Assembly: GCA_051362555.1 (NCBI GenBank)
Contig: CM120649.1
Location: 1,488,001-1,552,000, forward strand
DNA from: Lingula anatina
Taxonomy: Eukaryota; Animalia; Brachiopoda
Length of the DNA: 64,000 bases
Direction: 5' to 3'
The first letter of the stretch is position 1. The number at the start of each line of letters is the position of its first letter. The notes below the pieces were generated by a model. The model was given only the letters and a program-made list of their open reading frames with translations, did no database searches and was not told where the DNA came from. Shown here piece after piece: positions 6,928 through 36,692 of this stretch. The position numbers and the translations under genes were made by a program.

Positions 6928-6982
<55 letters not shown>

Positions 6983-8868: not shown

Positions 8869-8926
<58 letters not shown>

Positions 8927-10756
8927 CTTTTCTTATTTGTGAATTTTGCAAGTCACTCTTCCATTTATTAGCTTTACACAGTGGCACGTGCTTGTGTGCA
9001 TATGGAAGTTGCAATTACACATATTAAAAATATCAAATTTGTAAAACGCAATCCTTATCCTAAATGTACTTAGTTAATAGAAATATTTTTAAAGATTCAC
9101 ATGTAGAAAACGATTACTATGAAACAACAAGGGAAACATTATTTGTCAGACTGTGAAATAGATAAAAAAATTAAGGTCTCATTCTTTTTTTTCTAGATTG
9201 ACAAGTTAATCCGTGCTGGTGCAGACATCCTGGCTCCCATACCTATAGGAATTAAGAGGATCTCTGGGACTGCTGTAGACTTTGCATATCATATGTTTAA
9301 TCTGGTGAGTGGAATATCTTTTTATTGTAATTTTTGTTGTCTACAAGTTTCTATTTTTCGTTTCTACTAGGGTTTAATTTAATGATTTTTTTCCCCTAAG
9401 AAATTGAGTTAGACCAACACAAACCCTTGCAGCATAACTTGAATTTTCCATTCATTTTGTTGCAACCACTGTATACTGTATGTTATTGCAATTCCATCCC
9501 TTCTCCTTTCAGGATCGTAGGATAGCCCACATGCCTTATCATGCACTGACGCATGCTGAGCGTGACACATACAATGCACGGCGTAAGCTGCTGGGGCATG
9601 TGGGTGACATCATGCGTGTGAAGGCTGTAGAGAAAGAGGCTCAGCGCCTAGAGGAGGAGGAGAGAGAGGGGAGGAGAAGTAGGTCATGATGTGTAATTGA
9701 CATGAAGTGTAAAATGAAAGTGAAAGTAGATGATGTAGACTAATTAGTGTAAGTTGATTAGCTCAGACAACCTTGGCTGCTACAATTATTCTGATTGATG
9801 ATAAAACTATAACTACATTGGTGGCATGTTGCCTAGTCATAAAACATTTAACTCTTGTCAAACTTGTTCATTTTCCTATGTGTTAAGATGGTGAAAAATT
9901 AAAACATTTCTGAAAAGATGGTGAAATAATGTTTTTGCACCTTCTGCAAAAAGTTTATTGTTATGTAAGCAGGGACTGTTGGAGAGGGACCAAAGTGTTG
10001 TGCCTCACAGTCACAGGTAAAAGCATGTCAAGTCTTCTCAGAAACGATTAATTGTATTTTTACTGCAATCTTCTGAATTAACAGTATTTAACCCTGTGCC
10101 TTTTCATCTCTGTTAAGGTGTAAGTCCAAGTTCAGGTTTTGTCTACACGGGGACAGGGTCAAAACTGCCACCAGGCACCAAGGCCAAGGGAGGCCGTGCT
10201 GTCCCAGATGACGGACATGTCAAGTTCAATGCAGCGGACACTGGGCGGAAGGGGGACAGGGACCAGGGACACGTCAGGTGAGAAGTGACCTCTTACCTGG
10301 TGACTTTGTTTATTGTATTGTGCGGATTAAATGGTTGAATGATTATGTACTAGTTGTTTTGTTGATAGAGTGGTGAGATTATTGATTGGACTTGATTGAC
10401 TGCTTGAGTGACTGAATTATTGTTGGACCAAATAGTTTTATTGATTTCAATATTTGAATTCCATCTTATACAAGACTTGATTTCAGCCACAATTTAGTTT
10501 GGGTGTCATTAAATTTTAATATGTTTATAAAATATTATAAGAGTTGATGTAGGATTGTGTGATAGTCTCTTTGCAGTGAACATGACAGCATGTATATAAA
10601 GAAATAACTGTGTTTTTTATGTTTGATTCTTATCTAGTTAATAACTGTTAATTTTTATTTAATTTTTTATCTAATATTATGTTGGCTCTTACAAGGGTGG
10701 ATGAGACCGTGTGTGCATGTACGCATGCATTCGTGTTTGTTTAGGTGTGTGTGTCA

Positions 10757-10812
<56 letters not shown>

Positions 10813-13800
10813 AGAGACAGAGAGAGAACTAAAAGGAACCAGCCTTATACTCCCAATAGTGCCTTGGGAAATGTATGCTGCTTAACAATCTCTCAAATGT
10901 TTCTGCCTTATTTTGCTATAGAAGGGGAGTATGCTTCAACCTTTCCTCTGTTATCTTTCAATTCTCAGTGTAGCTACAGGGGTTATGGCTCTTGAGGAGA
11001 GTGAAGCACGGCATCTTCTGTCCCCAGCCAAACGCAAAGCACAGCAGACTAAAGTCAGGTTCGGGTCTTTTCAGTCTTGTCATGCTGCCAGGCTATTGCC
11101 ATCACTATTGCTGGGCCGCCTCATATCACTGCAACATTGTATCACTGCTGTGAATGTTTTTGATGAAAGGCAATGCATGATTGTATCACTGCTGTATATG
11201 CTGTATATTTTTGTTGTTGAATCACTGTTGCAGTTGTGAATGTTTTTGTTGAGCCACCAATACGTTCATGATTGCTTTACTGCTGTGTCCATGTATACTG
11301 ATATTGCTATTGCAACATTGTATCACCGTGAGTTGTGATTGTTCTTGAAGATTGGCCAACACATGTTGTTGCTATTGTCACTGCAACAATGCTGCTGTCA
11401 TTGTTCATGATGAACAACAATGCTGTATCACTGTAATCAGCTGACTGTTGATTCTGCCATATGTTATAATTAAATATTTGCTTAACATGCCCATCCTGGG
11501 TTTCACAGTTTACTGGAAACTGATCTCTTCTTTCAAGAATCTCTTGCTGTTCCAGTTAAGTCATAAACCCAGGGTGTTCAGAGCATCCCAGCAGTGCAGT
11601 TTGAATAATATCACACTTTACTTTTAAATTATTTTCTGGTGGGCCACATTTGGTCCAAAGGAACAAATTTATTATTTAGGCAGATCATTTATAATATTAT
11701 ATATTATATATAATAATATGTTCCTCTTATTTTGTATTGCTGTACTTCACTTTAAGTGAGAAGTGGGCAGTTTAAAGTGAAATCTGATTTTATTCATACT
11801 GCTGCAACATTGTATATAAAACTTGTATATATTGTATACAATTGTATAAATTATCTATGCATTTGCATATGTTTTATATACTTTTGTATACATTGTATAA
11901 ATAGTGATGAATGATGATTGTGATGCACCATGTGTATAACATACTTGATTAATTACCAGTCTGAATCCAATAATCCTAGCTTTTGTCTGCCATGAACTAA
12001 TGCTTTTATTATTAATGATTTATTTTCTGAAGGAACAAGAAGAATTCACTTATAAAGGGCATGCGTGTCAGGTGATTCTTGCTTTATTGTAATAATTGCA
12101 CGCATAGCACTGCTAGCACGCTCTGTGAATTATCTGTAATAAGATGTATACAGACATTTTACAGTAACCCATGACGAGATTCCAGCACAACTACTGCAAT
12201 ATGAGGCACTGTTACGGTGTTTACTCACAAAATTTACACAAAATTATCAATATCTCTAAAGATGATGGTTTGATGTTACTATGTGGGAAAAATGAATAAA
12301 AAGGAAATTGATGGGGATTCAGAAATTTCAGAAAGATGATGAAATATAACTCTTTCTATCTTTTTTTTTTTTTTCTAACTTGAATAATTAAAAAATTTGT
12401 GAGTAATACTTATAGTGTCATGCACATTAGTACAACATGTAGCACACTGTTGGTTGACAGCAAACACAGATTAGATAATAAGCTAGCACTTCGGTATTGA
12501 ATATATATACTAGACCTACTTGTATGCTAGATCCCAATGTATGGTGTTGTTTTTTAATTTGCGACATGCTGCAGGACATTGTAGATACCAGTACAATCAA
12601 TGTACACGGTGTAGTTTGCACAGAACCTTTGACAGTAGAAATATACATAGAGTCAAAACAACCTGTGTGTAATTTTAAATGCTTTTTTGGTATAATTCTG
12701 GGTAATTAAATAAGGATGGCTCAATATCACAAACCAGCCGTGACTGGAAAGCTTAACTACATGCAAAACGGTATGCATGTTTTATCGCCAGAGCACAAAA
12801 TAAGACCCATAAGGTATAAATATGGATTTTACTTACAGATGGTAGGAATTGGGTTTTAGAGCTAGAAAATTTTTCAAATTTTATTGGGGGGGGGGGGGGG
12901 TAATATACCTGTACTTCGCCTTCTCCCATGTACTAGCAAAATCCACCTTAGATTGCAGTGTTGTTTGTTGTAGCAAGGAGTGATCATGAGCACATATAGA
13001 ATAAGAACATAAAACCATTGACTATTATTATTACAGGTTAATAGAGCGCACTAGACTACCACTGGGTGTTACAGAGTTGTTTTTATATAATGATGTGATA
13101 CACGTAAACAAGAGATGGGTTCATTTAGCAACTTAAAAAAGTGTACAAGATATATATATTACATACATGTAGTGTTTGATTGTTGTAACATAACTGTAGT
13201 ACATAACCTCAGTCTGAAAGAAAAGTTTCTTCATTTTAAATATGCCCTTACTAGAACATATATTTTATGTTAATAATGTCAATTTATTTGTGATTCTTTT
13301 TTTCTCAATATTTAGGAAACCTTTACTGAAGTACTGCTACGAATGCGGTCGATCAGTAGGTGTGCGCCTGTCCGTGTGCACACGGTGTAAGGAGGTGTAC
13401 TACTGCAGCAAAGCGTGCAAGCTGAAGGCGTGGAATGCACGACACAAAGAGGAGTGTGTGCGTGTTGGAGGTGAGTAAACAGGAGGACATGCACAACCCA
13501 ACGACTGGCACGCCCCTCTTCTTATAATAGTTACATATAGCTTCCATGCATCCATCCATGTTATCATTGTACACAGATCACAGAATAAGCCAAGCTTTTG
13601 CCAATGTGGTCAGTGGTAATTCAATTTGGTTCCCTTGATTAACACATTTGCCCAGTAATACCCTTTGTGTACAATGTATCAGCTTATCGTAAAAATGACC
13701 ACAAAACTTGTACAAGATAGGTCAACAATAATTTGATGTTATGGTAGATTATAAAGGTTACGCATTACATGGAACCTCCTATATGTTTATGATCTATCAT

Positions 13801-14701
13801 TTTCTCCTCTATGTAACCTAGGTCCAGCTCATCTCATATATATATATATATGATCTATCACTCTCTCTCCATATAACCTAGGTCCAGCCACCAGTCCCAC
13901 CACCAAAGCAGGTCGTATCGACAGCCCCACCCCAGCCACAAACCCAGATAGAGGGGCCCCGGTCACCGTGGATCAACTAACCAGGGATAAAGATGCACAG
14001 AAGATTAAAGTAAGTGGGGAAATGCTTTGTATAGGAGTAGATTTTGATTTGAATTGTATTAATAAAATATAGTCATTGGATCCTACACTCAGTGAAATAT
14101 AGAGTTCAACAAATGTCATATAAGAATGATAAAAATAAAACAATATGTAATCATGGATATTCTGTTATGACAGCATGCTGCACATAAACTGGGAACTGCA
14201 TTGTTTAAGAATATTTTGCTTTGACTTGTCTGGTGTGCAACTGATGTACTAACCCCCAGCAATAGGAACAGTATACAGGAGCGGATGAGGCCCTGTTCTG
14301 GGTCTTCTGGAAGAGGGTCAGATTTTCAAGTTTACATTGACGGGTATCAAATTTTTTCTTTCGGAAGATGATCAAAAATAAAAGCTGGATCAACAAAGAT
14401 AATTTGGAAGACTGTCAGAAAATATCTGTGGATCCGCCCCTGGTATACCGGTATAGTGTAAAAACATAATTTTAAGATATTATCATATTCAACTGCCTAA
14501 GGTTAAAGAGTCAAACTCTCCTCAGTAATATACCCCACTATCTGTCTCCAGGTCCCTGTGCAAGGTCGCAGCCACAGTGCCAAGGTCAGGCAACAGGTCC
14601 ATGCAGGAAAGGACGGGGAATCCACGGGGAACTGGTCCCTGGATGAACTTCAACGCCTCAAACAGAAGTATGGGAAAGTGGATAACTATAGCTTTGAGTG
14701 A
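2785..14701 (+). CDS. ANKMY1: Ankyrin repeat and MYND domain-containing protein 1, ~1178 aa. Coding exons: 2785-2977, 3564-3658, 3970-4116, 4434-4712, 5083-5493, 5793-6764, 7157-7297, 7550-7651, 8174-8281, 8726-8857, 9197-9304, 9513-9678, 10118-10277, 10969-11058, 13316-13470, 13882-14009, 14552-14701
   Basis: All exons are bounded by AG/GT with matching phases (3537 nt, open frame). Domains: N-terminal MORN repeats ([28 protein letters not shown]), ankyrin repeats ([37 protein letters not shown]) and a MYND finger ([41 protein letters not shown]). Ends DNYSFE*. Exon 10969-11058 is a symmetric 90-nt exon and may be optional. Confidence 0.92.
3018..3188 (+). mobile_element. MITE (CAGGGGCGGATCC-type ends), copy A, in an ANKMY1 intron
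   Basis: Shares gatattttctgacagtcttcc and atacccgtcaatgtaaacttgaaaa..tctgacc..ccagaagaccca with the reverse complement of 14276-14442. Confidence 0.6.
6931..6981. repeat. (TTA)n microsatellite
   Basis: Direct reading; (AAT)n runs also at ~17439-17478 and ~40230-40272. Confidence 0.95.
8865..8923. repeat. (TG)n microsatellite next to an ANKMY1 donor site
   Basis: Direct reading; a similar run is at ~10758-10809. Confidence 0.95.
14276..14442 (-). mobile_element. MITE (same family), copy B, in the last ANKMY1 intron
   Basis: Imperfect terminal inverted repeats (TIRs) CAGGAGCGGATG / GGATCCGCCCCTG, flanked by gtata on both sides. Confidence 0.65.
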
Positions 14702-17680: not shown

Positions 17681-17899
17681 TTGTTTACAAAATGTCAGAA
17701 ATTCGAAGTAGAAAAAAAATCTAATTTCTGCTGATATCCTTCAAATTCAAACTTGCCACTAATAATCATTTGTCCTGATTTCTTTACAAATTATGTACTG
17801 ATAAAAATTATGCAATTGCCTTTTTCACAAGAGAACAAAATTGACCAGATTTATTAATGTCTATTTTTCAAATGTGAACATGCTAGGAGATGCAGATGC

Positions 17900-18460
17900 A
17901 GCCATGAAATAAGGTGTTTTCAAGCCGCTTTCAGGGTGGCTTGACATTAACACCCCACAGTCGGTGCTGGTACTTACACTTTATAAACCTACAAAATAAC
18001 AACAAAGGCAGTCTGCTTTTCAAGTGTCACGTCACAAAGCACCACCAGTATCTACATAAACAACAACAACAACAATGGAAAAACCCACACAAAGAGAAAA
18101 ACTATATTTGTCGCAGTGAATGTTTTTACGTCCTCTCTTAGGTCATATACATCTTACAAAGTTCACAAGAACTTCAGACACATACCTTGACTAAAGACAG
18201 CCATGACTTCTTCAAGGTGTTTTCAAGCCACTGCTGTTAAGATGGCTTGACATTAACACCCCACAGGCTGTACACGTATTTACACTTTATTAACCTCCAA
18301 AATAACAACAAAGACAGACTGCTTTTCAAGGTCGCGTCACTAAGCACTACCTATGTAAACAAAAAACAGTGGAAAAACCCACACAAAGAGTAAAACTTGT
18401 ATTTGGCACAGGACTTAGTGAATGTTTTTACGTCCTCTCGTAGGTCATACAAAGTTAACG
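17900..18460. repeat. ~300-bp direct duplication
   Basis: agccatga..aaggtgttttcaagcc..ggcttgacattaacaccccacag..gaatgtttttacgtcctctc occurs at ~17900 and ~18199; a third copy is at ~58519. Confidence 0.8.
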
Positions 18461-19239
18461 TTAAGTAAGAGGTGGATGAATGTGCAGGTAACAGAAAAAT
18501 ATATTGGATAAATAGAAATTTTAGTATAATCCAACTTTTACTTAAGATTTAAACTATACAGAGTGTATTTTTACACGCATAAAAGCGTCTTTTACCTAGA
18601 CAGGTGCCATGATTTTATTCTAAAATATATATATGTGTTATCTATCTTGATATAACACTCCAATTTCAGATCATAGCCTTTCATTAAGAAGATAACAGTG
18701 AAACCTCAGTTTAGGTCAGTTGGGACATCTCAGAGGCAGCAACCTTGGGTTACCTGAAAAACTGCCTCATATAAAATCTGAATTTCAAGCAGAGACAAAT
18801 TTCTTTCAGGTGAGTAAAGACAAAATGATGCCTGTCCTCCACTTGCCCTTTTACTTTCTCCAAAACATGAGCTCGGTCTGCTTTACTAAATTCACTAGTA
18901 TTTTCATGCTTGACAGCCGCTTTCTTCAATCACTGCAGTACACCCAAACCCAATATAGAGGTGCTTTTCACATGCTGAAGTGTCAAAAAAAATAAAATTG
19001 AATGAATTCAAAGTTGTATTCAATTTTTCAAAAAAGATATATGTGTATAGAACAAAAATCTACGACTGTCTCAATTTAAATTCAAATTTTAATTTTTATT
19101 ATGTCTTTTACGTTAAGCAAAGAGTCCTAAATAGTTTTTTTAAAAATGTACGGTAACGTATGTTCCAGGTCATTGCATTTCAATTTTTATACTGCGTACC
19201 AATATATTTTGTGGTGGCTCAGTCATGGTTGATTAGACA

Positions 19240-19420
19240 TGACGTAAGGAGGTTTTTATAAATATTTAAATTGTTACTCAAGGAGGGTCCAATTCTGTTC
19301 TTTCATTACCCGGGAAAACCACTTTTTACTTCCCAGAAAGGAACGGACCCTTCACCATATAAGGCCTAATTCTGAAACACCCCATTTCTGTGACTAGTGA
19401 ACGTGGGTTTTCATTTTCTG
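19240..19420 (+). promoter_or_regulatory. Putative immune-responsive motif cluster upstream of paralog 1
   Basis: CRE-like TGACGTAA (~19240), kappaB-like GGGAAAACCA (19312-19321), GAS TTCCCAGAA (19330-19338), IRF-like GAAAATGAAAAC on the - strand (~19407-19418). Confidence 0.45.
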
Positions 19421-19462
19421 TCCCTTTTTGAAATTAAATCATCATTGATTCGTAATTTTCAG

Positions 19463-19602
19463 GGTTTTAGTGTGCATTATCAGTGAGATATATAAAGATT
19501 TATTTACTGTGATTTGTGATTTGATTATTCTATTTACCATGAACTGTGATCACTACCCCTACTCCCCAACGGGACTCTCCTTTGGGGCAGTTCAGCAATT
19601 AG
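19463..19602 (+). other. Probable 5' UTR exon of paralog 1 (homolog at ~31973-32102 for paralog 2)
   Basis: Conserved block ending cagttcagcaattag|gtaattt (paralog 2: cagttcagcaaactg|gtaattt). An acceptor lies 10 nt before each ATG, so an upstream exon is expected. 5' boundary uncertain. Confidence 0.5.
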
Positions 19603-19932
19603 GTAATTTATTATTCACGGTCACTTGTGGGTTTCAATCAACATATTAAAATTCATTGACGTGGAGCTACAAATTGCAAAATTATTGACTTATACATCAA
19701 TGTTATAATCCGGTTGTAAAAATATTGCTATGTGCACAAGTTTATACAAAAATAATTATTATTAAAAGAGTAAAAGCAAAAAATCAAAAACGAATTCATG
19801 TCATATACAATATATTAAAAGTGAATATGTATACCTTTACATATTACTTGCCCAAGGTCATAAATAACAATGAATTCTTTATTATTTATGAAATGATTGA
19901 CAAGAATTTTAATTAATTTCAGAGGTGAAACG

Positions 19933-22900
19933 ATGGCATTATCAAAACCTTTTCTCACACCTCAAATTGATGTGGAGCAAGAGAATTATCTTCGCATGAG
20001 AGTGTTTCTGGAACGTGCTACAGATGTTCTTAGAGATGTATTGACTAGAGAATTACAGAAAGCTTATCCAGGGGACTTTGACCCATCTACAGGCATATTG
20101 TATAATGTTCTGAGCATTCCAGCTGTAAGAAAAAACTTGCTTCAGTTAAGTAGGAGAAATGTTCTGAATGCAAGCCAAAAGCAGATTTTGTATCCAGCTG
20201 GGGCCCCTTCCATAACTGCAAAGGTACATGATTTTGATGTCACCTTAACTGTCCTGTTGTTAAGGAATATCACCACACTGAATCCAAGCGCCAAATGGGA
20301 CAGGCCTCCCAGCACTGACCTGTCCACAGAAGCTGACATTGGTCGAGTGAAGACATATCGAAACAACCATATGCATAGTACGGCCAGGCTTCCAGCAGCA
20401 ACATTTCAAAGTGACTTTGACGGTCTCAAGACAGTACTACTACGTCTGTCAAATATCTATACAGACCAAGACTATGACCAACTTCTCATTAAACCAATAC
20501 AATCGTCAGGTATACTGTTAAGAATTACAAACAATAAAGAATTTACTTTTTGACATGTAACTAATATATTATTACAGTTACTATAGATAATTGAAGATTA
20601 TTTATATAGGAAATTGAATATTCCCCATTTATGGCATTCCATTTGCTTCAAAAATTTGAAACGGAAAATATATATCTAAAGATAATCATATGTATTTATA
20701 AATATTATTTTTCATTTTGAAGCAAAACATATATGTGAATAAGATTTCATGCATTACCAAGGCTTTATATATTCATGAAAAAAAAAATGACCTTGAAAAT
20801 ATTTTCATGCATTTAATAACTTGAAGATTTTGGAATATAAATACTTGTTTTCAAATATGTTTTCGAATATGATTTTTTTTTTCAAATATAAAAACTTTCT
20901 TGGTGACGTCGGCAAAATGTGTGTACACAGAGCGTTCGCATTCGGGTGTACCTAATTACCGTCTACAACCGACCACTACCGTCCACATATTTTTTTGATG
21001 AATATATAAAGCCTTTGTAATTTTAATTTGGTTAGCAAGAATTGGACATGAAAATAAAAGAAAGTTGACATGCTTCTTCATATTTGTTGTCATGTTCATT
21101 GGCCACTTACATAAGTTGATTGCAAATGTTTCATCCATTGTTTCAGGAGTACCTACTGCTTGCCAACTCATGTCCGTGAACCTCCCTAGAAAAGTCAGTG
21201 ACTTTTGTGGACGAGAGGATTTGTTAACAGCGATCCAACAAAATGTTGAGAACAACTCAGATGTTTTACTTCTGACAGGAATGGGTGGCATTGGTAAAAC
21301 TAGCATAGCTGTAGAGATGGGGCATCGCATGAGTGATGAAGGTAGAAATGTTCTGTTTTTTGATATGAGGCAGGTTGAAAATCTTGATTCTGTTCAGTTA
21401 TCACTAGTTCAACAATATAATCCTCAGATATTTCTGAAAGACATATATGCTGACTGTCAGAATTTGTTTCAAAAGACTCTGTCTGATATCAAATCAGCAA
21501 CTGTAGTTATTTTTGACAACATTGATAATTTACTTAGAGACCGGACACTGAAACAGTTCTTGATATTACTTCAGGATATGTTGAAAGCATCAAAGCACAT
21601 ATCTTTAGTCTGTACCAGCCGTGAATCATTTGACCTCATGTCAGTGAAAATGGTTGAAATACATGTCCCACCTCTTGATGATAATACATCAACACAGCTC
21701 CTTTCTGCAGTAACACCTGCTCCTCCAATTGAGAAGGAAGCAGGGATATTGAAAGAAATAGCCGCTAGGTGTGGGTACTGTCCACTTGCCTTGAAATTAC
21801 TAGCTCCGCAAATTAGAGAGAAAGGAAGTTTGCGAGTACTAGAGAAAATGGAGAAAAAAGGTGTTCTTAAAGTAGCAAATAGATCTTCATTTGTAGGACT
21901 AGTGCCATGTTTTGAAATATCTTTTGAGGCAATGTCTGCCAGAGAAAAAGACCTGTTTTGTAGTCTCTATCTGTTCCCAGTGTCTTTTCATTTGAGTGAT
22001 GTTTCAAACATTCTTAAAATGGATGAGGGTGAATGTGAAGACATTTTTGATAGTCTCACATTCAAGTCTGTTGTAAATCGTGTAAGTGACCAGGTGTATG
22101 ATCTGCATCCTCTGTTAAATGCTTTTTCTGAGTCCCAAGCAATACAATTTCCTGACAAAAAATCAAATATGGAAATTTCATACTGCAAATATTATTCTGA
22201 CAGGGCAGCTACACTGGCAGTAACATTTGAATTCTCAGTTCCAAAATATTCAAATGAAACAGAAGCCATACTTCCACATTTGCTGTGCAGTGGAAATATT
22301 TTATTAAATTATCTAAGCAAATACCCTCAAGGAAGATCAACAAGCACTACTGCAATGTACAGTGATGTTGACACAGACTATGATGATTTCATACAAAGAC
22401 TACTGGCAATTGCCAAAGTAATGATAGAAGTGTATTTGTTTAATGAGTCTCTGCAGCTATTAAAAAAATTAGAAAATATTCTCCAAACTACACAAAACAG
22501 TGTGCCTCTAAAAAAACAAACCAGTATACACCGTAAGTTATCTTCAGTATACGAGTGCATTGGGAATGTTTTGCTTGGTATGAGTAAGTATGATGATGCA
22601 TTGATATATCACAAGCAAAGTCTGGAAATACGTGAAGAGCTGCTTGGAACCAAGCACATTACCACTGCTATATCATACGACAATATTGGTATGACACTAA
22701 GAGGCATGGGTCAGTTTAATGATGCAGTGCTAAGCTACATGAAATGTCTTGATATATGTAAAGAGCTTTTTGGCACGGAGCACACTGAAACTGCTGAATC
22801 ATACAACAATATTGCTGCCGTGCTACGTGAAATGGGTAAGTATGATGACGCTCTGACATATTTTAAGAAAGGTCTTGCAATAAATAAAAAGTGTTTTAGT

Positions 22901-25540
22901 ATGAAACCCACTAAAACTGCTGACTCATACAGGAAAATTGGTCGCCTGCTACAACATATGGGTAAGATTGAAGATGCATTGACTTTTCATAAGAAATGTC
23001 TTGAAATTCGTAAAGAGGTGCATGGCACCAAGCACACTGAATCTGCTGTATCATACAAAAATATTGGTCTTGCACTTCATGGTATGTGTAACTATGATGA
23101 TGCTCTGACATATTATATGAAAAGTCTTGAAATACGTGAAGAGCTGCTTGGTATTAAACACCCTGAAACTGCTGATTCGTACTGCGGTATTGGTCTACTG
23201 CTATATGACATGGGTAAGTATGATGATGCATTGACATATCATCAGAGAAGTCTTGAAATACGTGAAAAGGTGTTTGGCACCAAGCACACTGAATCTGCTG
23301 TATCATACATTAGTTTTGGTCTTGCATTTCATGGAATGGGTAAGTATGATGATGCTCTGGAATATCATATGAAAAGTATTCGAATACGTGAAGAGCTGCT
23401 TGGTACTAAACACCATGAAACTGCTGACTCATACAACAGTATTGGTGATCTGCTACGTGACATGGGTAAGTACGATGATGCATTTACATATCAAAGGAAA
23501 AGTCTTGAAATACAAGAAAAGCTGTTTGGCACCAAACACACTACAACTGCTAGATCATACAGCAGCATTGGGACTTTACTAGTTTGTATGGGTAAGTATG
23601 ATGATGCATTGATATATCATAAGAAAAGTCTTGCAATACACGAGGAGCTGCTTGGCACCGAGCACATTACAACCGCTACCTCCTACATCAGTATTGGTAT
23701 TGTACTACATGACATGGGTAAGTATGACGATGCATTGACATACCATAAGAAAGGTCTTGAAATACGTGAAAAGATGTTTGGTACCGAGCACATTAAAACT
23801 GCTGACTCATACATCAATGTTGGTAATCTGCTACTTGACAAAGGTAAGTATGATGATGCATTGAAATATCATAAGAAAAGTCTTCAAATAAGACTTAAGT
23901 TGCTTGGCACCAAACACACTGTGACTGCTGGATTATACACCAATATTGGTGGTGCACTACATCACATGCATAAGTATGATGATGCATTGGCATATTATAA
24001 GAAAAGTATTGAAATATGCAAAGTTCTGCTTGGCACTAAACATCTTGTAACTGCTGCATCATACAACAATATTGGTCTCCTACTAAATGACATGGGTAAG
24101 TATGATGATGCAATGACATATTACAATAAAAGTCTTGAAATACGTGAAGAGCTGCTTGGCACCGAGCACATTGAAACTGCTGCATCATACAACCAAATCA
24201 GCCTTGTACTACGTGACATGTGTAAATTCTCTGATGCATTTACATATCAAAAGAAAAGTCTTGAAATACACGAAGAGTTGTTTGGTACCAAACACACTAA
24301 AACTGCTCACTCATACCACAATATTGGCTTTATTCTACATGCCATGGGTAAGTATGATGACGCACTGACATATTATAAGAAAAGTCTTGCAATACGCGAA
24401 GAGCTGCTTGGTACCAAACACACTATAACTGCTGATTCATACAACAATATTGGTAATCTGCTACGTGACATGGGTAAGTACAAAGATGCATTGACATTTC
24501 AAAGGAAAAGTCTTAAAATACGAGAAAAGCTGCTAGGCACCAAACACACTACAACTGCTAGATCATACAACAGTATTGGTAATCTTCTAGCTGGCATGGG
24601 TAAGTATGATGATGCATTGACATATCACAAGAAAGGTCTTGAAATATGTGAAGAGCTGCTTGGCACTGAGCACATCGATACTGCTACCTCATACAACAAT
24701 GTTGGTGCTACCCTAAATGGCATGGGTAAGTATGATGATGCATTGACATATCACAAGAAAGGTCTTGAAATACGTGAAGGGCTGCCTGGCACTGAGCACC
24801 CTGATACTGCTGACGCAAACAACAATATTGGTCACCTTCTACATGACATGGGTAAGTTTGATGATGCAATGGTATATCTTAGAAAAAGTCTTAAATTACG
24901 TGAAGTGGTGCTTGGTACCCAACACGCTGAAACTGCTGAATCATATGATAAAGTTGGTGCTGTACTATGTGACATGGGAAGGTATGACGATGCACTGACG
25001 TATCACAAAAAAAGTCTTGAAATACGTGAAGAGCTGCTTGGGACCAAACACACTACAACTGCTGACTCATACAACAGAATTGGTGTTGTACTACATGACT
25101 TGGGTAGGTATGATGATGCACTGAAATATCACAAAAAAAGTCTTGAAATATGTGAAGAGCTGCTTGAATACACTGACATTGCTCGCTCATACTGCAATAT
25201 TGGTGCTGCACTACATAGCCTGCATAAGTGTTCAGAGTCTCTTAAATACTTGAAGAAAAGTATTGATATATATGAAACTCAACTTGGTGTCAAGCATGTT
25301 AAAACAGCTTCTTGTTACCTATATATTGGAACAATTTTGGTAGAAGTTAAGTTGTACAGAGATGGAGTTCTTTATTTGAAGAAATGTGCATCAGTTCAAG
25401 AAGAGTTACTTGGTGTCACCCATCAACATACAATAGAAGCATGTAAAATGGTTGGTTCTGTTTTGATAATAATGGGGCAATTTTCAGAAGCAACCAAGTA
25501 CTTCCAAAAAATTAACTGGAACATTGCCATTATTTTTTAG
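19933..25540 (+). CDS. HEPN(DZIP3-like)-STAND NTPase-TPR protein, paralog 1; exons 19933-20509 and 21147-25540; ~1656 aa, ~24 TPRs
   Basis: Exon 1: DFDVTLTVLLLRNI..KWDRPPSTDLSTEADIGRVKTYRNNHMH (Rx4H). Phase-1 intron TCAG|gtatac..tttcag|GA. Exon 2: FCGREDLL, Walker A GMGGIGKTS, Walker B VVIFDNID, sensor-1 LVCTSR, GLPL-like CGYCPLAL, MHD-like YDLHPLL, then 126-nt (42-aa) repeats TAxSYxxIGxxLxxMGKYDDALTYHKKSLEIREELLGTKH. Confidence 0.9.
20755..21020. mobile_element. Inverted-repeat-flanked insertion in the paralog 1 intron
   Basis: ttaccaaggctttatatattcatgaaaaaa pairs with tttttgatgaatatataaagcctttgtaa; not present in the paralog 2 or 3 introns. Confidence 0.5.
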
Positions 25541-27593
25541 ACTTTTCACCCCCCTAAACGCCATGTGGAATTAGGAACGATGCATATATATTAAGCTATA
25601 GAAGCCCAAACAAGATTCAAATATAGATTTTAATAAAATGTGAATATAAACAAATCTGTAAAAAAATATATATCTATATATTGGGTGGAAATTGCCCAAG
25701 AAAATCTTATAAATGACATCAACACAACTGAGTTGAAGATATACCTAGTTCTACGTACACACGCCCATGTCTGCTTTCAAGAGATTGATGACCCTGAACT
25801 TGTACAATGACAGCTTCATTACATGTAAGCATGTGTGCGTGCGTGTGTGCATTTGTTTATGGGTGTTTGGAAGTGTTCCCTTTTTTACTGGAAGAATAAG
25901 AGATTAATATCATATTCCCATTTTAAACAAGTCTCACTAAAATAAGAAAGAGAAAAAACCTGAGAGGTAGGATCAACTTGTAACTTATTTCAAGTGCTTT
26001 GATGGCTTTCCTTTCCTGAATATCAATGTAATCTTGGACAAATAGCTGTACAGAAAATATTAATTAGTTTGTATTTGGAATATTTTTGCTATAAAAACTA
26101 CTAGTATAACATATATGACATTAATCCCATACTTTGAACAAAGAGATAATTGCAATAAGCTTGAATTTCATTTACACACTTGCCTGTATTTTGCTTTGCT
26201 TTGGTGGTTCAAATTATTGCTCTAAGTGCCAATCCTGGGATAAGTCACAACTAATGGTTGCCCACCATAAATGACATACATGTACAAGAACAAATTACGT
26301 CATTTATCAACTATGTCTTGGCTGCACCACTTAGCAATGACGTTCTTGTATGTTGCATACGGTGGATGACTTGTGCATCAGTTGTAACTGATAAATAATG
26401 GATGTTGTATTTTTGACAGCATCAAGGTATTGTTTGTCATGAAGCTGTATTAAGGATTATTTATATTGATATACTCAATGTTATATAATTTCTGTATATA
26501 TTTTATATCTAAAGACATCTAAAATATTTGAAATACTGATAGCACGGTATTGGTATTCCGTGAAAATTAATTTTATTATATTCCCTGAGATGGACCGAGG
26601 ACCATGATAATATTATTATTAAGTCATGAGTTTTGCAATTCCAATATGAATTACGGTTATGACTGGTTCTTTTCAAAGGGAAAAATATGAAAGTTTACAG
26701 ATACTCCATTTCTTTAAGTCATAAATACTCAAAACATTCCTAGTGAGTGGTAGCAACAAAACTGTAAAGCTGGCCACTTTATAGTTTTATTCTAAACAGT
26801 AAAACATCACAAATGCTACAAAGATTTTTTAATGATTTCAAAATTGTGTATCTGAAAGATTCATACTTTTACTTTATTGAAAAGAATGCACAAGTACTGT
26901 TTTTGTGATTAATCCAGTGTCATTATAATACTATATAACCCAGCTCTATGAATTATATATTAAAAGATAGCGGAAATGTCTGAATTTCTACTAGATGCAG
27001 TATTGTTTAGAGACAAATTATATATTCTCTTAAATATGAAAGATAAAATTTATTAGTTTACGATGCATATTCCACAATATCTTCAGAAAATATATCAAAT
27101 ACTGTTGGATGGCACGTTATTGAAAGATAAATGCCATTATACATAACATGCTGATATTATTAAATGTGGCAAGTTAAACACCTAATAATGATGAGTTATT
27201 TCAATCTCATTGTACTGTTATTAACTCTCAGTGATGTAAACAATTATAAAGTGTTGCACTAGACAACTGTTGCATTGTGATATTATAAAACTAATAATAA
27301 ATTATAAAAGTAAAACAAAATTGTTGTTGTGTATTTCTTAAAAACTACACTCCCCTATTAGTTTCATGTTAATCAACGCAAAAAAAAATGGTATTTCAAG
27401 ACAATCAACTTTACCGGATGTACTATTTTAATACATTATTGGCTTATCCAGCTGTGACAAAGGCTATAGTGGTAGTATGTATAAGAAACAATGCATGTTT
27501 TCACACTGTTTATTAAATGAGAAATGGTACACATGGAAAAAACAAGATGGAAATGCACACACACCCACACACAGTTAGTACTACTTAACTTAC

Positions 27594-29310: not shown

Positions 29311-31784
29311 CTGGAACAATAAACAACAGTTATGTATTACTAATTGAATTGTTGAGGATATAAGATAATTTACTGAGAAGTAATTGTTTAGCATCTTGAT
29401 TGGCGATATAAATAACATACAGGAATAAATATGTGACTGACAGTCACAGAAATATTGGAGGTAATACCCACATATTTTGTAAGCTCTTGATAAAAAGAAA
29501 AACAATAATTTAAAAGGAATAAATATGATATGTTCATACTGGTCAACAAGTGTAAATCCCCCCTCCTCCCTGCCACCGCCACCATTTTTTAGTGTGAACA
29601 TGTCGTGATTAATCCCAGGAATGAGCTAGCTGTGTAAACCAAAATCAAAACCCATCGCATGATGGAGAAGAATACTGATCTAGAAATGATGGGAAATGGT
29701 GTTGATCTAACCAAATGCATCACATTCGCATACTAGCTTTCTCTCTCTGTCTCTCTGTCTCTCTCTCACACACACACACAAAGCCAGACACAGACACACT
29801 GATGCACATGCACTGACAAATTCACTGATACACATTCAAAAACAACAACAACAACAACAACAACAATGCCAACAACACACTGACACTTGCTGCGATCATG
29901 ACAGTCACAATATGTACTAAAACAGGCTAGAGTCTGCACATGTAATAATTAACATTTTTAACCTCAATAATAACAACGAAAGCAGTCTTCTTTTCCAAGG
30001 GTCACATTCAGCGTTTGCTGATTAAACAAAAACCATGATAAAACCCACACAGAAAGATAAGACTATTAGCACAGTATTTTATGACTTTAGGACTTTAGAC
30101 TTTACGTCCTCTCCTAACGTGAAGTAGGAAGTGGGTACATAAACAGGTAAAAGAATTATAAAATATATTGTTGATTACTGTATACATGGAACCTTTTGGA
30201 GTATTAAATCATTAACTTAACTCAACAGTTTACTTTTAAGCTGTTTTGGCATGATGAAAATATGTCTTTAACTTGGACAGGGGCCAAACCTACATGTACT
30301 GTATAGTGCTTATGTTTCTCACTGGACTTATGGAACATTAGAACATTCCAGAACTAAGCAAACAAAGTGGGCTAGAGAGTTTTAGAGAAACAAATTGCAT
30401 GGGCAAAGTTGAAACAAGCTGAAACATAGTTCATCTTTACTAAGACATAAAATGAAATCAAAACCATGCAATCTATGTTGATTGAACACTTCATTTTCAG
30501 ACAAAGCCTTGTCATTAAGAAGATCAACAGTGAAACCTCAGTGGACGTCATTTGGGACATCTCACAGGCAGTAACATTGGGTCACCTGAAAAATTAACAC
30601 GTAAAAAAAAAAAGAAAAGAAAAAATCTGAATATCAACCAGGGACAGATTCGCTCCCAGGTGAGTAAAGACAATATGATGCCTGGGTGTCCTACACTTGA
30701 CATTTTAATTACTCCTAAATTCAGAGAATTAGCCAGAAGTGGACAGACTGGGAGTGTAATTATAAATTCTGGGAGTGTAATAGCAATGAGGTCAAATGGA
30801 CCGAGATGCTGCCAGAGTCCGGGGGGGGGATATATGATTTTTTTGAGGCCATTTGGTGCATTCTGGTGACATTTTGAAATCAAAATATTGTTTGATCAAG
30901 TTTTATCATATTTCATAATTTCAAAGAATAATTGTAATGGCAATTACATATTATATTCCAATCTGAAAAATATTGCTTTAACTATTAAACAACAAAAACA
31001 CAATATCTAGACAAATTCACCTTTGATTTTATGCACGTAGTTTTACATTTTAAACCATTTAGAGTAATCTTTGTCACCAGTTAGCTGACTAAACTGTTTT
31101 TAAGGTCAAACCATTTTCATCTGGATCTTAAAACACAATTAAATATTTAAATTGACTTTAAAATGCATGTAGTGTACTATCCGTGGCAAGTTGACATATA
31201 ACGACAGAGCAGCAATGTTATTTCTGAACTGAGCCAAATATGGTCGTTTTTGTTTACCCAAGACACAAGCCTTTTTCTGGGTTTTAAACACAATTTTATG
31301 TATTATTTATCATGAATAAAAATGTATGGTAAACACACGGCTTCATCATGGGCCATGATTTGAAAAACTGACAGTGTTTCATGAAAAATGGCTGTGCAAA
31401 ACATGGCCACAGCCTCCTTCTTGGTATGTACCAACAGCTACAGTTGAGCTCCGGAATGTTTCCGAAAGGAACAATTTTTAACAACTTAACTGGTTACTTT
31501 TTATAACACCTCCCCTCTTTTATGAATGGATTGTGTACATAATGCATGTTTGCTCACTATATTATCAACTGACAATATTTAAGTGATTAATTGCAGCATG
31601 GGATGTTATCTCCTGTGACCATTGAAGTGTCAGCTCTAGTACCCTATAAGTATCTCGGTTACCTAGATGGGTGCTTTCGGTAACAAAATGTAACAAACTG
31701 ATAACAAGCTGGAGCGTTCTTTCTGAGCTCAACGGCTAGATTTGCCACATTTGGTGGTGTAATACCAAAAAAAAAAAGAGTTTT

Positions 31785-31930
31785 AGGAGGGTACCATTCT
31801 GTACATTCATTACCAGTGAAAACCACTTTTTATTTCAAGGAAATTCATGAAACCTTCACCTTATGAACCGTGATTCATGAATCATCACATTTCTGTGACT
31901 AGTGAACCTGGGTTTTAATTTTCTGCCCTT
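31785..31930 (+). promoter_or_regulatory. Homologous motif cluster upstream of paralog 2
   Basis: Aligns with ~19280-19420. GAS TTCAAGGAA (31834-31842) is at the same position; the kappaB- and IRF-like motifs are altered. Confidence 0.4.
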
Positions 31931-32399
31931 TCTGAAATGAAGTCAATTTACCTGGTGATTTGTGATTTCCAGCATTTTCGACATGCACTACAGTGTGATA
32001 TTAACTAACATTTATTTACTCTGATTTGTGAATTTGATAATCACTACCTGCCTACCCCCACCCCCCCCATGAAACGCTCACTTAGAGCAGTTCAGCAAAC
32101 TGGTAATTTGTTATTAATGGTCACTTGTTGGTACAAATCTACATATAATCAATTAACTGAGTGGGTTATGTAGATTGCATCAATGTTGTAATCCGATTAT
32201 AAAAAATATTACCTGTGAGCACCACATTATACACAATCATTTAATAAATGGAAATTATAAATAGAGAATTAATTTATGTCAAGCATGATTATATAACAGG
32301 TGACAACAACATATTGTTAAGTCAATGCCTTAAATTACAAATAACTCTTATAATCATTTAAAAAATGATTGAATTGAATTCTTTTTCAGAACTGAAAAA

Positions 32400-35300
32400 A
32401 TGGCATTATCAAAACCTTTCCTCACACCTCAAATGGACGAGGAACAAGAGAATTATCTTCGCATGAGAGTGTTTCTGGAACGTGCTACGGATGTTCTTAG
32501 AGATGTATTGACAAGAGAATTACAGAAAACTTATCCACGGGACTTTGACCCATCCACAGGCATATTGTGTAATGTTTTGAACAACCCAACTGTAAGAAAA
32601 AACTTGCTTCAGTTAAGTAGGAGAAATGTTCTGAATGCAAGCCAAAAGCAGATTTTGTATCCAGCTGGGAGCCCTTCCTCAACTGCAAAAGTAAATGATT
32701 TTGATGTCACTTTAACTGTCATGCTTTTACGTAATATCACCACATTGAATCCAAACGCCAAATGGGACAGGCCTCTCAGCACTGACCTGTCCACAGAAGC
32801 AGACATTGGTCGAGTGAAGACATATCGTAACAAACATATGCATGGTGCAGCCAGGCTTCCAGCAACAACATTTCAAAGTGACTTTGACGGTCTCAAGACA
32901 GTACTGCTACGTTTGTCAAAGATCTATACAGATCAAGACTATGACAAAGTACTCATTGATCCAATACAAACCTCAGGTATACAATTTTGAAATTAAAAAA
33001 AGAAAACTTTACAAAGATTGAATTATATTGGCATATAATTGTATATAATTTTTAATTAAAAATATTCAATTTTCTTGCTAATGAATTAATACATAGCATG
33101 GAGGATTTTTTCTACATATAAAATGTTTAACTGTTCCTAGTACCAGGAACTATCACGAAAATATTTTAATGATTATACAAAATGCAAAACTTTTATTAAT
33201 AAAATTAATGAATTATTAAGGCGAAAGAGTACATTTTTGTTTTATTTATTTTTTTGGTCAAATGTGAATTTGGAATGCCAGATGAGAGCTACATTGGTTC
33301 CCTTTTATTTTGGCCAAGAAGAATTTTGGAAAAAAGGAATTCTAGATGAAATATAATATATAAAATGTTTCTTATATTCTTATAAAATGTTTCTTATATT
33401 CTTATATTGCTATGCTGAAATAAGTTACAATGCCCCAATATTATTTATTCAAAATACTCATTTTTTTCAAATTAAGTGAAATATTGTATACATTGTTTCA
33501 GGAGTACCTACTGCCTGTCAACTCATGTCCATGAACCTCCCTAGAAAAGACAGTAACTTTTGTGGACGAGAGGATTTGCTGAAAGAGATCCAACAAGATG
33601 TTGAGAACTCAGAGATTGTGCTCCTGACAGGGATGGGTGGTATTGGCAAGACCAGCATTGCTGTAGAGATGGGGCATCGCATGAGTGAAGAAGGTAGAGA
33701 TGTTTTCTTTCTAGACATGAGGCAGGTTAAAAATCTAGATTCTTTTCAGTTATCACTGGTGCAACACTACAATCCTAAGATGTTTTTGAAAGAAATATAT
33801 GGTGATTATCAAAACTTATTTCAAAAGGTTCTTTCTGAGATAAACTCGTCAACTGTGGTTATTTTTGACAGCATTGATCATTTTATAAGAGCTAAGAAAG
33901 CAGAACAGTTTTTACAATTATGTCAGGATATGTTGAAAGCATCAAAGCACATGTCTTTAGTTTGTACAAGCCGCCAATCATTTGACCTAACATCTGTGAA
34001 AGTAAACGAAAAAGCAATATCCCATCTTGATGTTAAATCATCAACTTGGCTACTATCAGGTGGGGCTTCTGCTCCCCAAACAGAAGAACAGGCTAAAATA
34101 TTGGAAGAAATAGCTGCTAGATGTGGGTACTGTCCTCTTGCCTTGAAATTACTAGCACCTCAAATAAAAAAGAAAGGGGTTTTGCGAATGCAAGAGAAAA
34201 TAGACAGAAAGGGTGTTCTTGAAGTAGCAGATACATCTGAATTTGAAGGAATGAAGTCAACATTTGAAATATCATTTGAAGCATTGTCTGATAGCGAAAA
34301 AGATATGTTCTGCAGTCTGTTCATATTCCCAGTGTCGTTTCATTTGACTGATGTTTCAAACATTCTCCAAAAAGAAGAGGACGAGTGTGAAGACATTCTT
34401 GATAGTCTCACATCCAAGTCCCTTGTAAACCAAGTGAGTGATCAGGTTTATGATCTACATCTCCTGTTAAAGGCTTTTTCTGAGTCCCAAGCAAAACAAA
34501 TTCCAGATAAAATATCAAAGATGGAAATTTCATACTGCAAATATTATGGTGAAAGGGCAGCTTTACTGGTAGTAATATTTGAATCCACAGTTCCAAAATT
34601 TGCAAATGAAAGAGCAGAAATCATACTTCCACATTTGTTGTACAGTGGAAAACTTTTGCTAAAACATCTAAGCCAATACCTTCAAAATAAATCAACAAGC
34701 ACTACTGCACTAGTCAAGGATTCTGACACAGACTATGATGATTTCATACTAAGGCTTCTGGCCATAACCAATGTATTGAGACAAATGTATTTGTTAAATG
34801 AGCCTCTGCACCTATTAAAAGAGTTAGCAAATGTTCTAAAAACAAAACAAAACGTGCTTCGTAACAGACAAACCAAAATGCACTTATCTTCAGTATATCA
34901 CAGTATTGGGACAGTTTTGTTTGTTATGGGTAAGTATGACGCTGCATTGGAATACCACAAGAGAAGTCTTGAAATATGTAAAGAGCTGTTTGGCACCCAG
35001 CACACTCAAACCGCTGGAAAATACAGCAATATTGGTCTTGTGCTACATGAGCTGGGTAAGTTTAATGACGCATTAACATATCAAAAGAAAGGTCTTGAAA
35101 TACAAGAAAAGGTGCTAGGTACCAACCACCCTTGTATTGCTGGACCATACAGCAACTATGGAAATCTGCTACATGACATGGGAAAGTATGATGATGCATT
35201 GACATATTACCGGAAAGGTCTTGCAATTCAAGAACTGCTGCTAGGCACCAATCACACTGAAACTGCTGGCTCATACAGCAATATTGGTCTTGTGCTATAT

Positions 35301-36692
35301 GAGATGGGTAAGTTTGATAATGCATTAACATATCAAAAGAAAGCTCTTGAAATACAAGAAAATGTGATAGGTACCAACCACCCTGAAACTGCTGGCTCAT
35401 ACAGCAATATTGGTCTTGTGCTACATGCCATGGGTAAGTATGATGATGCATTGACATATCACATGAAAGGTCTTGAAATACATGAAAAGGTGCTAGGTAC
35501 TAACCACCCTCGTACTGCTGACTCATACGGCAATATTGCTCGTGTACTATGTTACATAGGTAACTATGATGATGCATTAACACATCAAATGAAAGGTCTT
35601 GAAATACATGAAAAGGTACCAGGTACCAATCACCCTAAAAGTGCTGACTCATACACCAACTATGGTACTCTGCTACTTAAAATGGGCAAGTTTAATGATG
35701 CTCTGACATATCACATGAAAGGTCTTGCAATTCAGGAACAGCTGCTAGGCACCAATCACACTAAAACTGCTGGCTTATACAACAATATTGGTATTGTACT
35801 ACGTGACATGGGTAAGTATGATGATGCATTAATATATTAAAAGAAAGGTCTTGAAATACAAGAAAAGGTGCTAGGTACCAACCACCCTTGTACTGCTGGC
35901 TCATACACCAACTATGGAAATCTGCTACATGACATGGGAAAGTATGATGATGCATTGACATATTACCGGAAAGGTCTTGCAATTCAAGAACAGCTGCTAG
36001 GCACCAATCACACTAAAACTGCTGGCTTATACAACAATATTGGTCTTGTACTACGTGGCATGGGTAAGTATGATGATGCATTAATATATCAAAAGAAAGG
36101 TCTTGCAATTCAAGAACAGCGGCTAGGCACCAATCACACTGAAACTGCTGGCTCATACAGCAATATTGGTATTGTGCTACATGACATGGGTAAGTATGAT
36201 AATGCATTGACATATCAAAAGAAAGGTCTTAAAATACTTGAAGAGGTGCTCGGCACCAAACACACTAAAACTGCTCAGTTATACTACAACCTTAGTATTT
36301 TACTACATAGCATGGGTGAGAATGCAGAGTCTCTTAAAAATATGAAGAAGGCACTTGATATATATGAAACACATTTTAGTGTCAAGCATGAAAAAACGGC
36401 TTCATGTTACCTGAAAATTGGAAAAAATTTGGTTGAAGTAAAGTTGTACAGAGATGGAGTTCTTTATTTGAAGAAATGTGCATCAGTTCAAGAAGAGTTA
36501 CATGGTCTGACTCACCCCAGTACAATAGATACATGTAAAATGATTGGTACTGTTCTCATACTGATGTCACAATTTACAGAAGCAATCAAATATTTCGAAA
36601 AAATTAACTGGAACTTTGTCATTGACAAAATTCTGTATTTTAGCCACCCTCACCCTAAACTCGATGTGGAATTTGGAATGATGTATATATGA
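32400..36692 (+). pseudogene. HEPN-STAND-TPR paralog 2; exons 32400-32976 and 33502-36692; in-frame TAA at 35838-35840 (pseudogene or truncated allele)
   Basis: Same exon structure and motifs (YRNKHMH, GMGGIGKTS, IFDSID, CGYCPLAL). ORFs 33525-35840 and 35868-36692 share a frame; TAT TAA AAG corresponds to TAT CAA AAG in sister repeats. ~14 TPRs (1255 aa) if read through, 971 aa as truncated. Confidence 0.8.

Follow-up and report, generated by a model that had tools for sequence, protein, structure and literature searches.

What a long array of tetratricopeptide repeats (TPRs) does in an animal gene, and why a few of its positions vary while the rest of each unit is conserved, is the question raised by a 64,000-nucleotide (nt) stretch of the brachiopod Lingula anatina genome (assembly GCA_051362555.1, contig CM120649.1, positions 1,488,001 to 1,552,000; hereafter the window, numbered from its first letter). 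The array (22538-25537) comprises 24 kinesin-light-chain-type TPRs of 42 amino acids (aa) and forms the end of g1, a two-exon gene whose 1656-aa product, without internal stop, combines a HEPN_DZIP3 domain, a STAND/NB-ARC ATPase, and the repeats. Two paralogues of the same layout, g2 and g3, lie in tandem with g1 on the forward strand. The array is probably the ligand sensor of a receptor resembling the NOD-like receptors (NLRs), with positive selection the likely driver of change in its groove. The observed basis of this proposal is the domain order, the intact motifs, a nonsynonymous-to-synonymous rate ratio (omega) of about 2 at the groove, and a repeat number that differs among the paralogues.

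Twenty-one units of the g1 array keep a strict 126-nt register (22538-25183) and are followed by three degenerate capping units. The count of about 49 repeats given in a first-pass annotation, made from the sequence alone, applies to the three paralogues together (48 at the score cut-off used: 24 in g1, 13 in g2, and 11 in g3) and not to the g1 array. Its lists of residues at the variable positions stood up well, as across the 19 full g1 repeats position 3 is occupied by D, E, V, R, T, A, I, G, or H and position 10 by L, A, N, M, R, D, T, I, G, F, or H, with V in repeat 21. The scaffold that it described as invariant is conserved only, with 3 of the 42 positions fixed in these 19 repeats, 15 of 42 carrying one residue in at least 17 of the 19, and a mean pairwise identity of 58% in aa and 75% in nt. 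The near constancy of the underlying DNA was likewise overstated, given that a 20-nt motif is exact in 6 of the 19 repeats and within one mismatch in 11, with mismatches reaching 6. The variation among g1 repeats is not assembly error, because short-read contigs from two DNA runs showed no letter differing from the array in any of the 16 listed pieces, although both runs belong to one study and one may be the source of the assembly. Variation was analyzed over 34 of the 48 repeats (19 from g1, 10 from g2, and 5 from g3; first, capping, and indel-bearing units were left out), and entropy in this set is highest at positions 10, 6, 3, 42, 13, 32, and 14. Across 76 repeats taken from eight distant paralogues of L. 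anatina, entropy is highest at positions 3, 13, 6, 14, and 10, and the two entropy profiles correlate with a Spearman coefficient of 0.69.

The most variable positions map to the surface with which TPRs hold their ligands. On a helical wheel, positions 3, 6, 7, 10, 13, and 14 span 220-340 degrees, in line with the earlier proposal that they share one helix face. Alignment to the consensus TPR equates repeat position n with TPR position n-1, so that these six become TPR positions 2, 5, 6, 9, 12, and 13, which are reported as the peptide or ligand contacts on the concave face and as the most variable positions in TPRs generally (PMC1261162; this and the other papers cited are represented here by part of their text). 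A model of ten repeats forms a TPR solenoid (pLDDT, the predicted local confidence, of 88) that superposes on KLC1 (7ai4) with a root-mean-square deviation of 1.7 Å and a TMt of 0.90; a single-sequence model of the ATPase with the repeats had a pLDDT below 50 over residues 1-375 and was unusable for the ATPase. The groove was mapped by gapless alignment to KLC1 and the consensus TPR, with KLC1 numbering derived by hand and all residue letters fitting. PMC6214655 names 16 residues of KLC1 as contacts; 15 of them lie within the aligned repeats, N469 being outside, and land on repeat positions 3, 6, 7, 10, 11, 13, 14, 18, and 32 (Table 1). The likeness to the KLC TPR domain (7ai4, 6fuz; PMC6214655) includes the Asn pair at positions 6 and 7, with Asn at position 7 in 24 of the 34 repeats; unlike the Lingula protein, KLC has six conserved repeats for fixed cargo motifs and lacks both ATPase and HEPN. 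Rather than being buried or scattered, the variable sites are thus predicted to coincide with concave-face TPR positions and peptide contacts. Their description as a helix-A set holds for positions 3, 6, 7, 10, 13, and 14 but not for 25, 32, and 42, which are outside helix A and also fast; position 32 is explained by KLC1 contact R327, which maps there.

Codon models place the groove above neutrality. With the six groove positions as a fixed class, omega over the 19 g1 repeats is 2.08, compared to 0.53 elsewhere (p = 1.6e-4 against 1), and the groove value is 1.82 over all 34 repeats (p = 5e-5) and 2.10 over the 10 g2 repeats (p = 0.017). These estimates come from our own GY94 codon-model code on IQ-TREE trees, and the six sites were set beforehand from the literature; since the first-pass annotation had already named them, the choice was not fully blind, although two outside sources agree on it. 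Comparison of site models M1a and M2a gives p = 0.011 for g1, 0.006 for g2, and 5e-6 for all 34 repeats (similar or smaller under F1x4, except for g2 at 0.01), and M8a against M8 gives 0.006 for g1 and 0.001 for g2. The fast sites in the g1 repeats are positions 3, 6, 10, and 13, together with 7, 11, 14, 25, 32, and 42. The positively selected sites of these repeats sit on the predicted concave face. Without any tree, 59 of 102 groove codons are changed across 17 disjoint closest repeat pairs, compared to 35% expected under neutrality. The nonsynonymous excess looked for at the groove is therefore present, with site models, tree-free counts, and simulations in agreement, and the idea of a modular recognition surface under diversifying selection gains support from both the omega values and the concave-face mapping. 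By contrast, the ATPase (omega 0.28) and the HEPN domain (0.39) are under purifying selection among the three paralogues.

A local mutation hotspot was considered and rejected, because second-codon-position diversity at the groove is 0.61, compared to 0.22 at fourfold sites and 0.16 at those within helix A. Silent sites look near neutral, since fourfold divergence between g2 and g3 (0.12-0.16) agrees with that of their introns (59 mismatches in 438 columns). The invariance of the third positions of Ala2 and Leu29 hints at silent-site constraint or homogenization. The frequency of CpG context is only marginally higher in groove codons (19 of 204 vs 62 of 1224). The path-counted silent rate at groove codons (pS 0.48) is inflated by multi-base changes, so that the analysis relied on fourfold sites and on likelihood models.

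The HEPN exon and the ATPase, which the first-pass annotation had not included, make the gene NLR-like. With an N-terminal effector domain, a central ATPase with intact motifs, and C-terminal repeats, the predicted product of g1 fits the layout of an NLR-like STAND receptor, although it is not an NLR in the strict sense because the C-terminal repeats are TPRs and not leucine-rich repeats (LRRs); of the 43 Pfam families matched by g1, the 25 with the best scores include no LRR, and TPRs occupy the C-terminal part. The ATPase motifs are Walker A, Walker B, CTSR, GYCPLAL, and an MHD-like motif (Table 1). That HEPN and ATPase belong to one protein is supported by the in-frame GT..AG junction, by RNA reads of the family that skip this intron, and by relatives that carry both domains together. 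Exon 1 shares 83% identity with the beginning of P0001, a protein of L. anatina. The HEPN Rx4-6H motif, with N after R, reads RNNHMH in g1 and RNKHMH in g2 and g3, from which RNase activity is predicted. The linker between ATPase and repeats, at an omega far above that of the ATPase (Table 1), may contain decayed repeats or evolve in concert with the sensor. A search with the ATPase returned 57 proteins, nine of them from L. anatina at 35-70% identity, of which eight carry HEPN; an Rx4H or Rx4-6H motif is present in all eight of these HEPN-bearing relatives (among P0001-P0009). A further four L. anatina proteins were found at shorter lengths, and the remaining matches were mostly bacterial or unnamed STANDs at E = 2e-8 or weaker. 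Among 1.84 billion representatives, a profile search found 10 matches at E ≤ 1e-30, with the top six from L. anatina, a soft-coral protein seventh (E = 2e-48), and three unnamed; all close members of the g1 ATPase subfamily are from L. anatina, and some weaker matches have DUF4559 or CARD ahead of NB-ARC-TPR. The 14 named L. anatina relatives constitute a lineage-specific expansion.

Several points weigh against reading the array as a positively selected sensor. A groove omega of about 2 is modest, position 7 (omega 0.5-1.0) does not exceed 1, and no named KLC1 contact accounts for the fast positions 25 and 42, although 42 adjoins the groove. The tests contrast paralogous repeats rather than alleles, on a weakly supported tree and with non-PAML code. 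M8a was numerically unusable on the 34-repeat set, 34 of the 59 changed groove codons differ at two or three bases and can be misread by single-step models, and the M1a/M2a comparison is liberal under mosaic nulls (5 of 49 exceeded 5.99, and 2 of 49 reached the 9.0 of g1). An in-frame TAA (35838-35840) interrupts repeat 8 of g2 with a 283-codon open frame behind it, and it reflects either a recent pseudogene, a truncated seven-repeat sensor, or an error. Only 1 of 147 mapped RNA reads is at least 99% alike to g1. Two of the four RNA runs yielded only reads of a small intron repeat, one yielded a single read, and one yielded 124 reads, mostly 90-99% alike. Three reads with three different starts jump precisely the 637 nt of the g1 intron, their probable origin being paralogues or other alleles. 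The reads do not show expression of g1 itself, because the differences in the HEPN exon mostly match the other two genes (21 of the 34 listed agree with g2 or g3). Lastly, ongoing diversification is not fully separable from old, maintained diversity combined with gene conversion, a case that the neutral simulations do not cover.

This last case is the main surviving rival, although we consider it unlikely. It holds that the groove residues are old and are maintained by purifying selection to suit a single unchanging partner, with gene conversion leveling the scaffold and the silent sites. The repeats would then mimic omega above 1 in the absence of an arms race. Conversion is plausible in this cluster: fourfold difference among the HEPN exons is 0.09-0.12 (about 0.10 between g1 and g2), whereas the g1 ATPase differs from those of g2 and g3 by 0.36-0.37, which suggests exon-level gene conversion or a chimeric g1. 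The ATPase of P0001 is g1-like at first and g2/g3-like after approximately alignment column 160 (compared with 21149-22537 and 33504-34883), so that P0001 is likely a recombinant, and the alike HEPN exons and this mosaic together suggest exchange between paralogues. The identity of the g1 array in the two DNA runs of one study, over the listed pieces, also counts in favor of this rival. However, in the six closest repeat pairs, groove differences (24 of 86) are three times as frequent as silent ones (17 of 166); these pairs were picked on non-groove likeness, and the excess persists when they are picked on whole likeness (p = 0.003). A single fixed partner is also at odds with the paralogues, which differ in their groove strings and in repeat number (24, 13, and 11, with 14 regular repeats in P0001), counts that are compared between paralogues only as the short-read contigs are too short to span the array. 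In addition, the collection searched holds no L. anatina protein with more than 70% identity to the g1 ATPase region, compared to 99% for an exon of the neighboring ANKMY1; the lack of a near-identical match among the listed proteins could stem from rapid turnover or from incomplete reference annotation.

Neutral drift of solvent-exposed, unconstrained groove positions, with the excess arising from tree error, recombination, or constrained silent sites, is largely refuted, and we give it very little weight. The variability of concave positions in TPRs generally (PMC1261162), the invariant silent sites noted above, and the many multi-base groove changes would all accord with it. However, neutral simulations with groove omega set to 1 and with 1 to 42 independently shuffled segments, most of them with recombination, averaged 0.9-1.0 (standard deviation 0.24) with a maximum of 1.78, and none reached 2.08 (0 of 49 and 0 of 266, or 0 of 315). 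The count of changed codons, which is blind to how many bases changed, still exceeds the neutral expectation (bootstrap 95% interval of the excess 0.12-0.35), and helix B as a class has an omega of 0.6.

A non-immune adaptor or scaffold with many repeats, like kinesin light chain or nephrocystin-3, is slightly less probable still. In its favor, KLC provides the closest solved 42-aa repeats, one relative is automatically named nephrocystin-3-like, and Pfam TPR_NPHP3 matches the array. Against it stand the N-terminal HEPN domain (Rx4H intact), the STAND ATPase, the tandem arrangement of copies, one of which bears a stop, the expansion to 14 named relatives within the lineage, and omega above 1, none of which would be expected of a housekeeping adaptor.

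HEPN domains need pairing for RNA cleavage. If the array is the sensor of an NLR-like receptor, then, by analogy with KLC1 and other TPR complexes, its repeats would form a superhelix in which Asn at positions 6 and 7 would grip the backbone of an extended protein ligand as an Asn ladder, while positions 3, 10, 13, 14, and 32 would read the ligand side chains. Binding would free the ATPase and lead to oligomerization, as in NLRs and in bacterial Avs proteins, whose TPR-like sensor is reported to bind protein directly and thereby trigger oligomerization (PMC13581612). The HEPN domains could then pair and cut RNA (PMC3710099), with cell arrest or death following as in NLRs and Avs. New specificities would arise through point changes at groove codons and through gain, loss, and exchange of repeats within and between paralogues. 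A bolder possibility, which we put forward tentatively and regard as doubtful, is that the Lingula family is an animal counterpart of the variable fungal NLRs, with a re-programmable TPR-groove code in single-chain sensor-RNase receptors. Selected point changes and exchange of repeats would alter this code quickly enough for individuals within the species to carry largely different receptor sets, for recognition of pathogens or non-self.

The fungal precedent invoked by the first-pass annotation is real. In Podospora, NB-ARC proteins with 42-aa TPRs show positive selection on the concave side (PMC4986451), and Pa_2_10340 resembles g1 in joining a STAND ATPase to 42-aa TPRs, with positively selected and polymorphic sites mapped to concave helices by modeling on KLC2, varying repeat number, and exchange of repeats between paralogues (PMC4986451, PMC13449251). 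The Lingula gene differs in its HEPN_DZIP3 effector and its animal host, and its variation in repeat number is seen among paralogues only. Unlike the fungal high-internal-conservation (HIC) NLRs, whose repeats exceed 85% identity (PMC4986451), Lingula repeats average 58%, 67%, and 57% pairwise aa identity in g1, g2, and g3, respectively. Identity to their own consensus is 0.72, 0.78, and 0.74, in the same order, a stand-in for the Psim of at least 0.7 (PMC13449251), with capping and irregular repeats left out. HIC NLRs are reported in animals too, and the main text of PMC13449251, in the part available, names neither Lingula nor HEPN. In Ectocarpus, 42-aa TPR exons are under positive selection in site models, and its NB-ARC-TPR genes share with those of Lingula the 126-nt/42-aa unit, clustering, and birth and death (PMC3341825). 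However, each Ectocarpus repeat is a separate, shuffled exon (PMC3341825), whereas the Lingula ATPase and all of its repeats occupy one exon.

Among animals, HEPN_DZIP3 is reported on NACHT and NB-ARC proteins (PMC10236652, PMC9646362, PMC8260672), and DZIP3/hRUL138-like HEPN genes of corals and bivalves resemble g1 in their N-terminal HEPN_DZIP3 with Rx4H and in their tandem expansions (PMC10236652, PMC9646362, PMC8260672, PMC3710099). NB-ARC in the coral NLR-like genes is usually paired with TPRs, as in g1, whereas the oyster HEPN fusions described are with NACHT rather than NB-ARC. In the text available, these reports cover domain counts and haplotype variation rather than selection on repeat positions. 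Bacterial Avs proteins similarly combine a sensor, an ATPase switch, and a nuclease effector in a single chain (PMC13581612), as predicted for Lingula from sequence; they differ in reading conserved folds by shape over large surfaces, where the near-copy Lingula repeats vary at set groove positions, and g1 has only approximately 22-28% identity to bacterial STANDs. We found no site-level selection test on animal STAND-TPR repeats in the literature searched, which excluded most subscription papers. The principle of diversifying receptors in this way is already known from fungi and brown algae, and the Lingula gene is a well-supported animal example. The direct per-site test extends the scheme to a lophotrochozoan animal, in a group where TPR-type NLR-like genes had previously been counted. 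TPR-bearing NLRs have been treated as not involved in pathogen recognition (PMC6321704, in the text available), whereas selection on the groove argues that the Lingula TPRs recognize something variable. This gene is also a tractable model for invertebrate immune specificity and HEPN activation, owing to its clean repeat register and its sensor encoded in a single exon.

Table 1. Features of the window and repeat positions matched to KLC1 contacts.
Feature	Position	Strand	Basis
ANKMY1 gene, intron-rich (MORN, ankyrin, MYND)	2785-14698	+	large exon 99% identical to L. anatina protein
g1 exon 1, ATG and HEPN_DZIP3 domain (predicted RNase effector)	19933..20509	+	Pfam PF18738 E=2.3e-30
HEPN Rx4H motif RNNHMH, intact	20359..20376	+	sequence
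g1 intron, 637 nt, GT..AG, phase 1	20510..21146	+	frame kept across splice
g1 exon 2: ATPase, helical linker, and all TPRs	21147..25540	+	one open frame of 1512 codons
STAND/NB-ARC ATPase of g1	21170..22216	+	Pfam NB-ARC PF00931 E=2e-8, 34.3 bits (cut-off 23.5)
Walker A of g1 ATPase (GMGGIGKTS)	21278-21304	+	motif position
Walker B of g1 ATPase (VVIFDNID)	21503-21526	+	motif position
CTSR motif of g1 ATPase	21611-21622	+	motif position
GYCPLAL motif of g1 ATPase	21773-21793	+	motif position
YDLHPL (MHD-like) of g1 ATPase	22097-22114	+	motif position
Helical linker, ATPase to repeats	22217..22537	+	omega 1.05 among three paralogues (104 codons)
g1 sensor: 24 TPR repeats of 42 aa (21 regular and 3 capping)	22538..25540	+	repeat scan, site models
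g2: HEPN exon 32400-32976, exon 2 33502-36692, at least 13 repeats from 34884	32400..36692	+	open frame, Pfam
g3: HEPN exon 48944-49520, exon 2 50730-53494, 11 repeats from 52115	48944..53494	+	1113-aa open frame
Repeat position 3			KLC1 contact K340 (PMC6214655)
Repeat position 6			KLC1 contacts N259, N301, N343 (PMC6214655)
Repeat position 7			KLC1 contacts N302, N344, N386 (PMC6214655)
Repeat position 10			KLC1 contacts V305, L347 (PMC6214655)
Repeat position 11			KLC1 contact L348 (PMC6214655)
Repeat position 13			KLC1 contact R266 (PMC6214655)
Repeat position 14			KLC1 contacts K309, N351 (PMC6214655)
Repeat position 18			KLC1 contact Y313 (PMC6214655)
Repeat position 32			KLC1 contact R327 (PMC6214655)

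Coverage of g1 differs among the DNA runs. In the X2 contigs, depth over the repeats is about half of that over the ATPase, which we do not take as a sign of a second allele, and the poor coverage of g1 in runs X8 and X18 is not counted as evidence of absence. The large runs X18 and X19, which bear the same species label, contain only 4% of the sampled words of g1 (19900-25600); the cause may be presence/absence variation or a cryptic species, neither of which is proven.

The g1 intron holds a 32-nt inverted repeat pair (20753-20784 and 20990-21021), resembling an insertion of a miniature inverted-repeat transposable element; between its two arms lies a 40-nt stretch to which RNA reads and contigs originating elsewhere in the genome match. 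The non-coding DNA upstream of g1 (19281-19750) and g2 (31785-32240) is approximately 71% alike, and an acceptor-like tttcag precedes the ATG of each, so that an upstream non-coding exon is possible. Most exons of the neighboring ANKMY1 gene are nearly identical to the L. anatina protein. Around the gene cluster, a dispersed repeat recurs in copies that are 72-79% alike (17899-18865, 30471-30719, and 56465-58818), and there are two tandem repeats, one with a 199-nt unit in 2.6 copies (60240-60774) and one with a 25-nt unit in about 5 copies (62137-62269).

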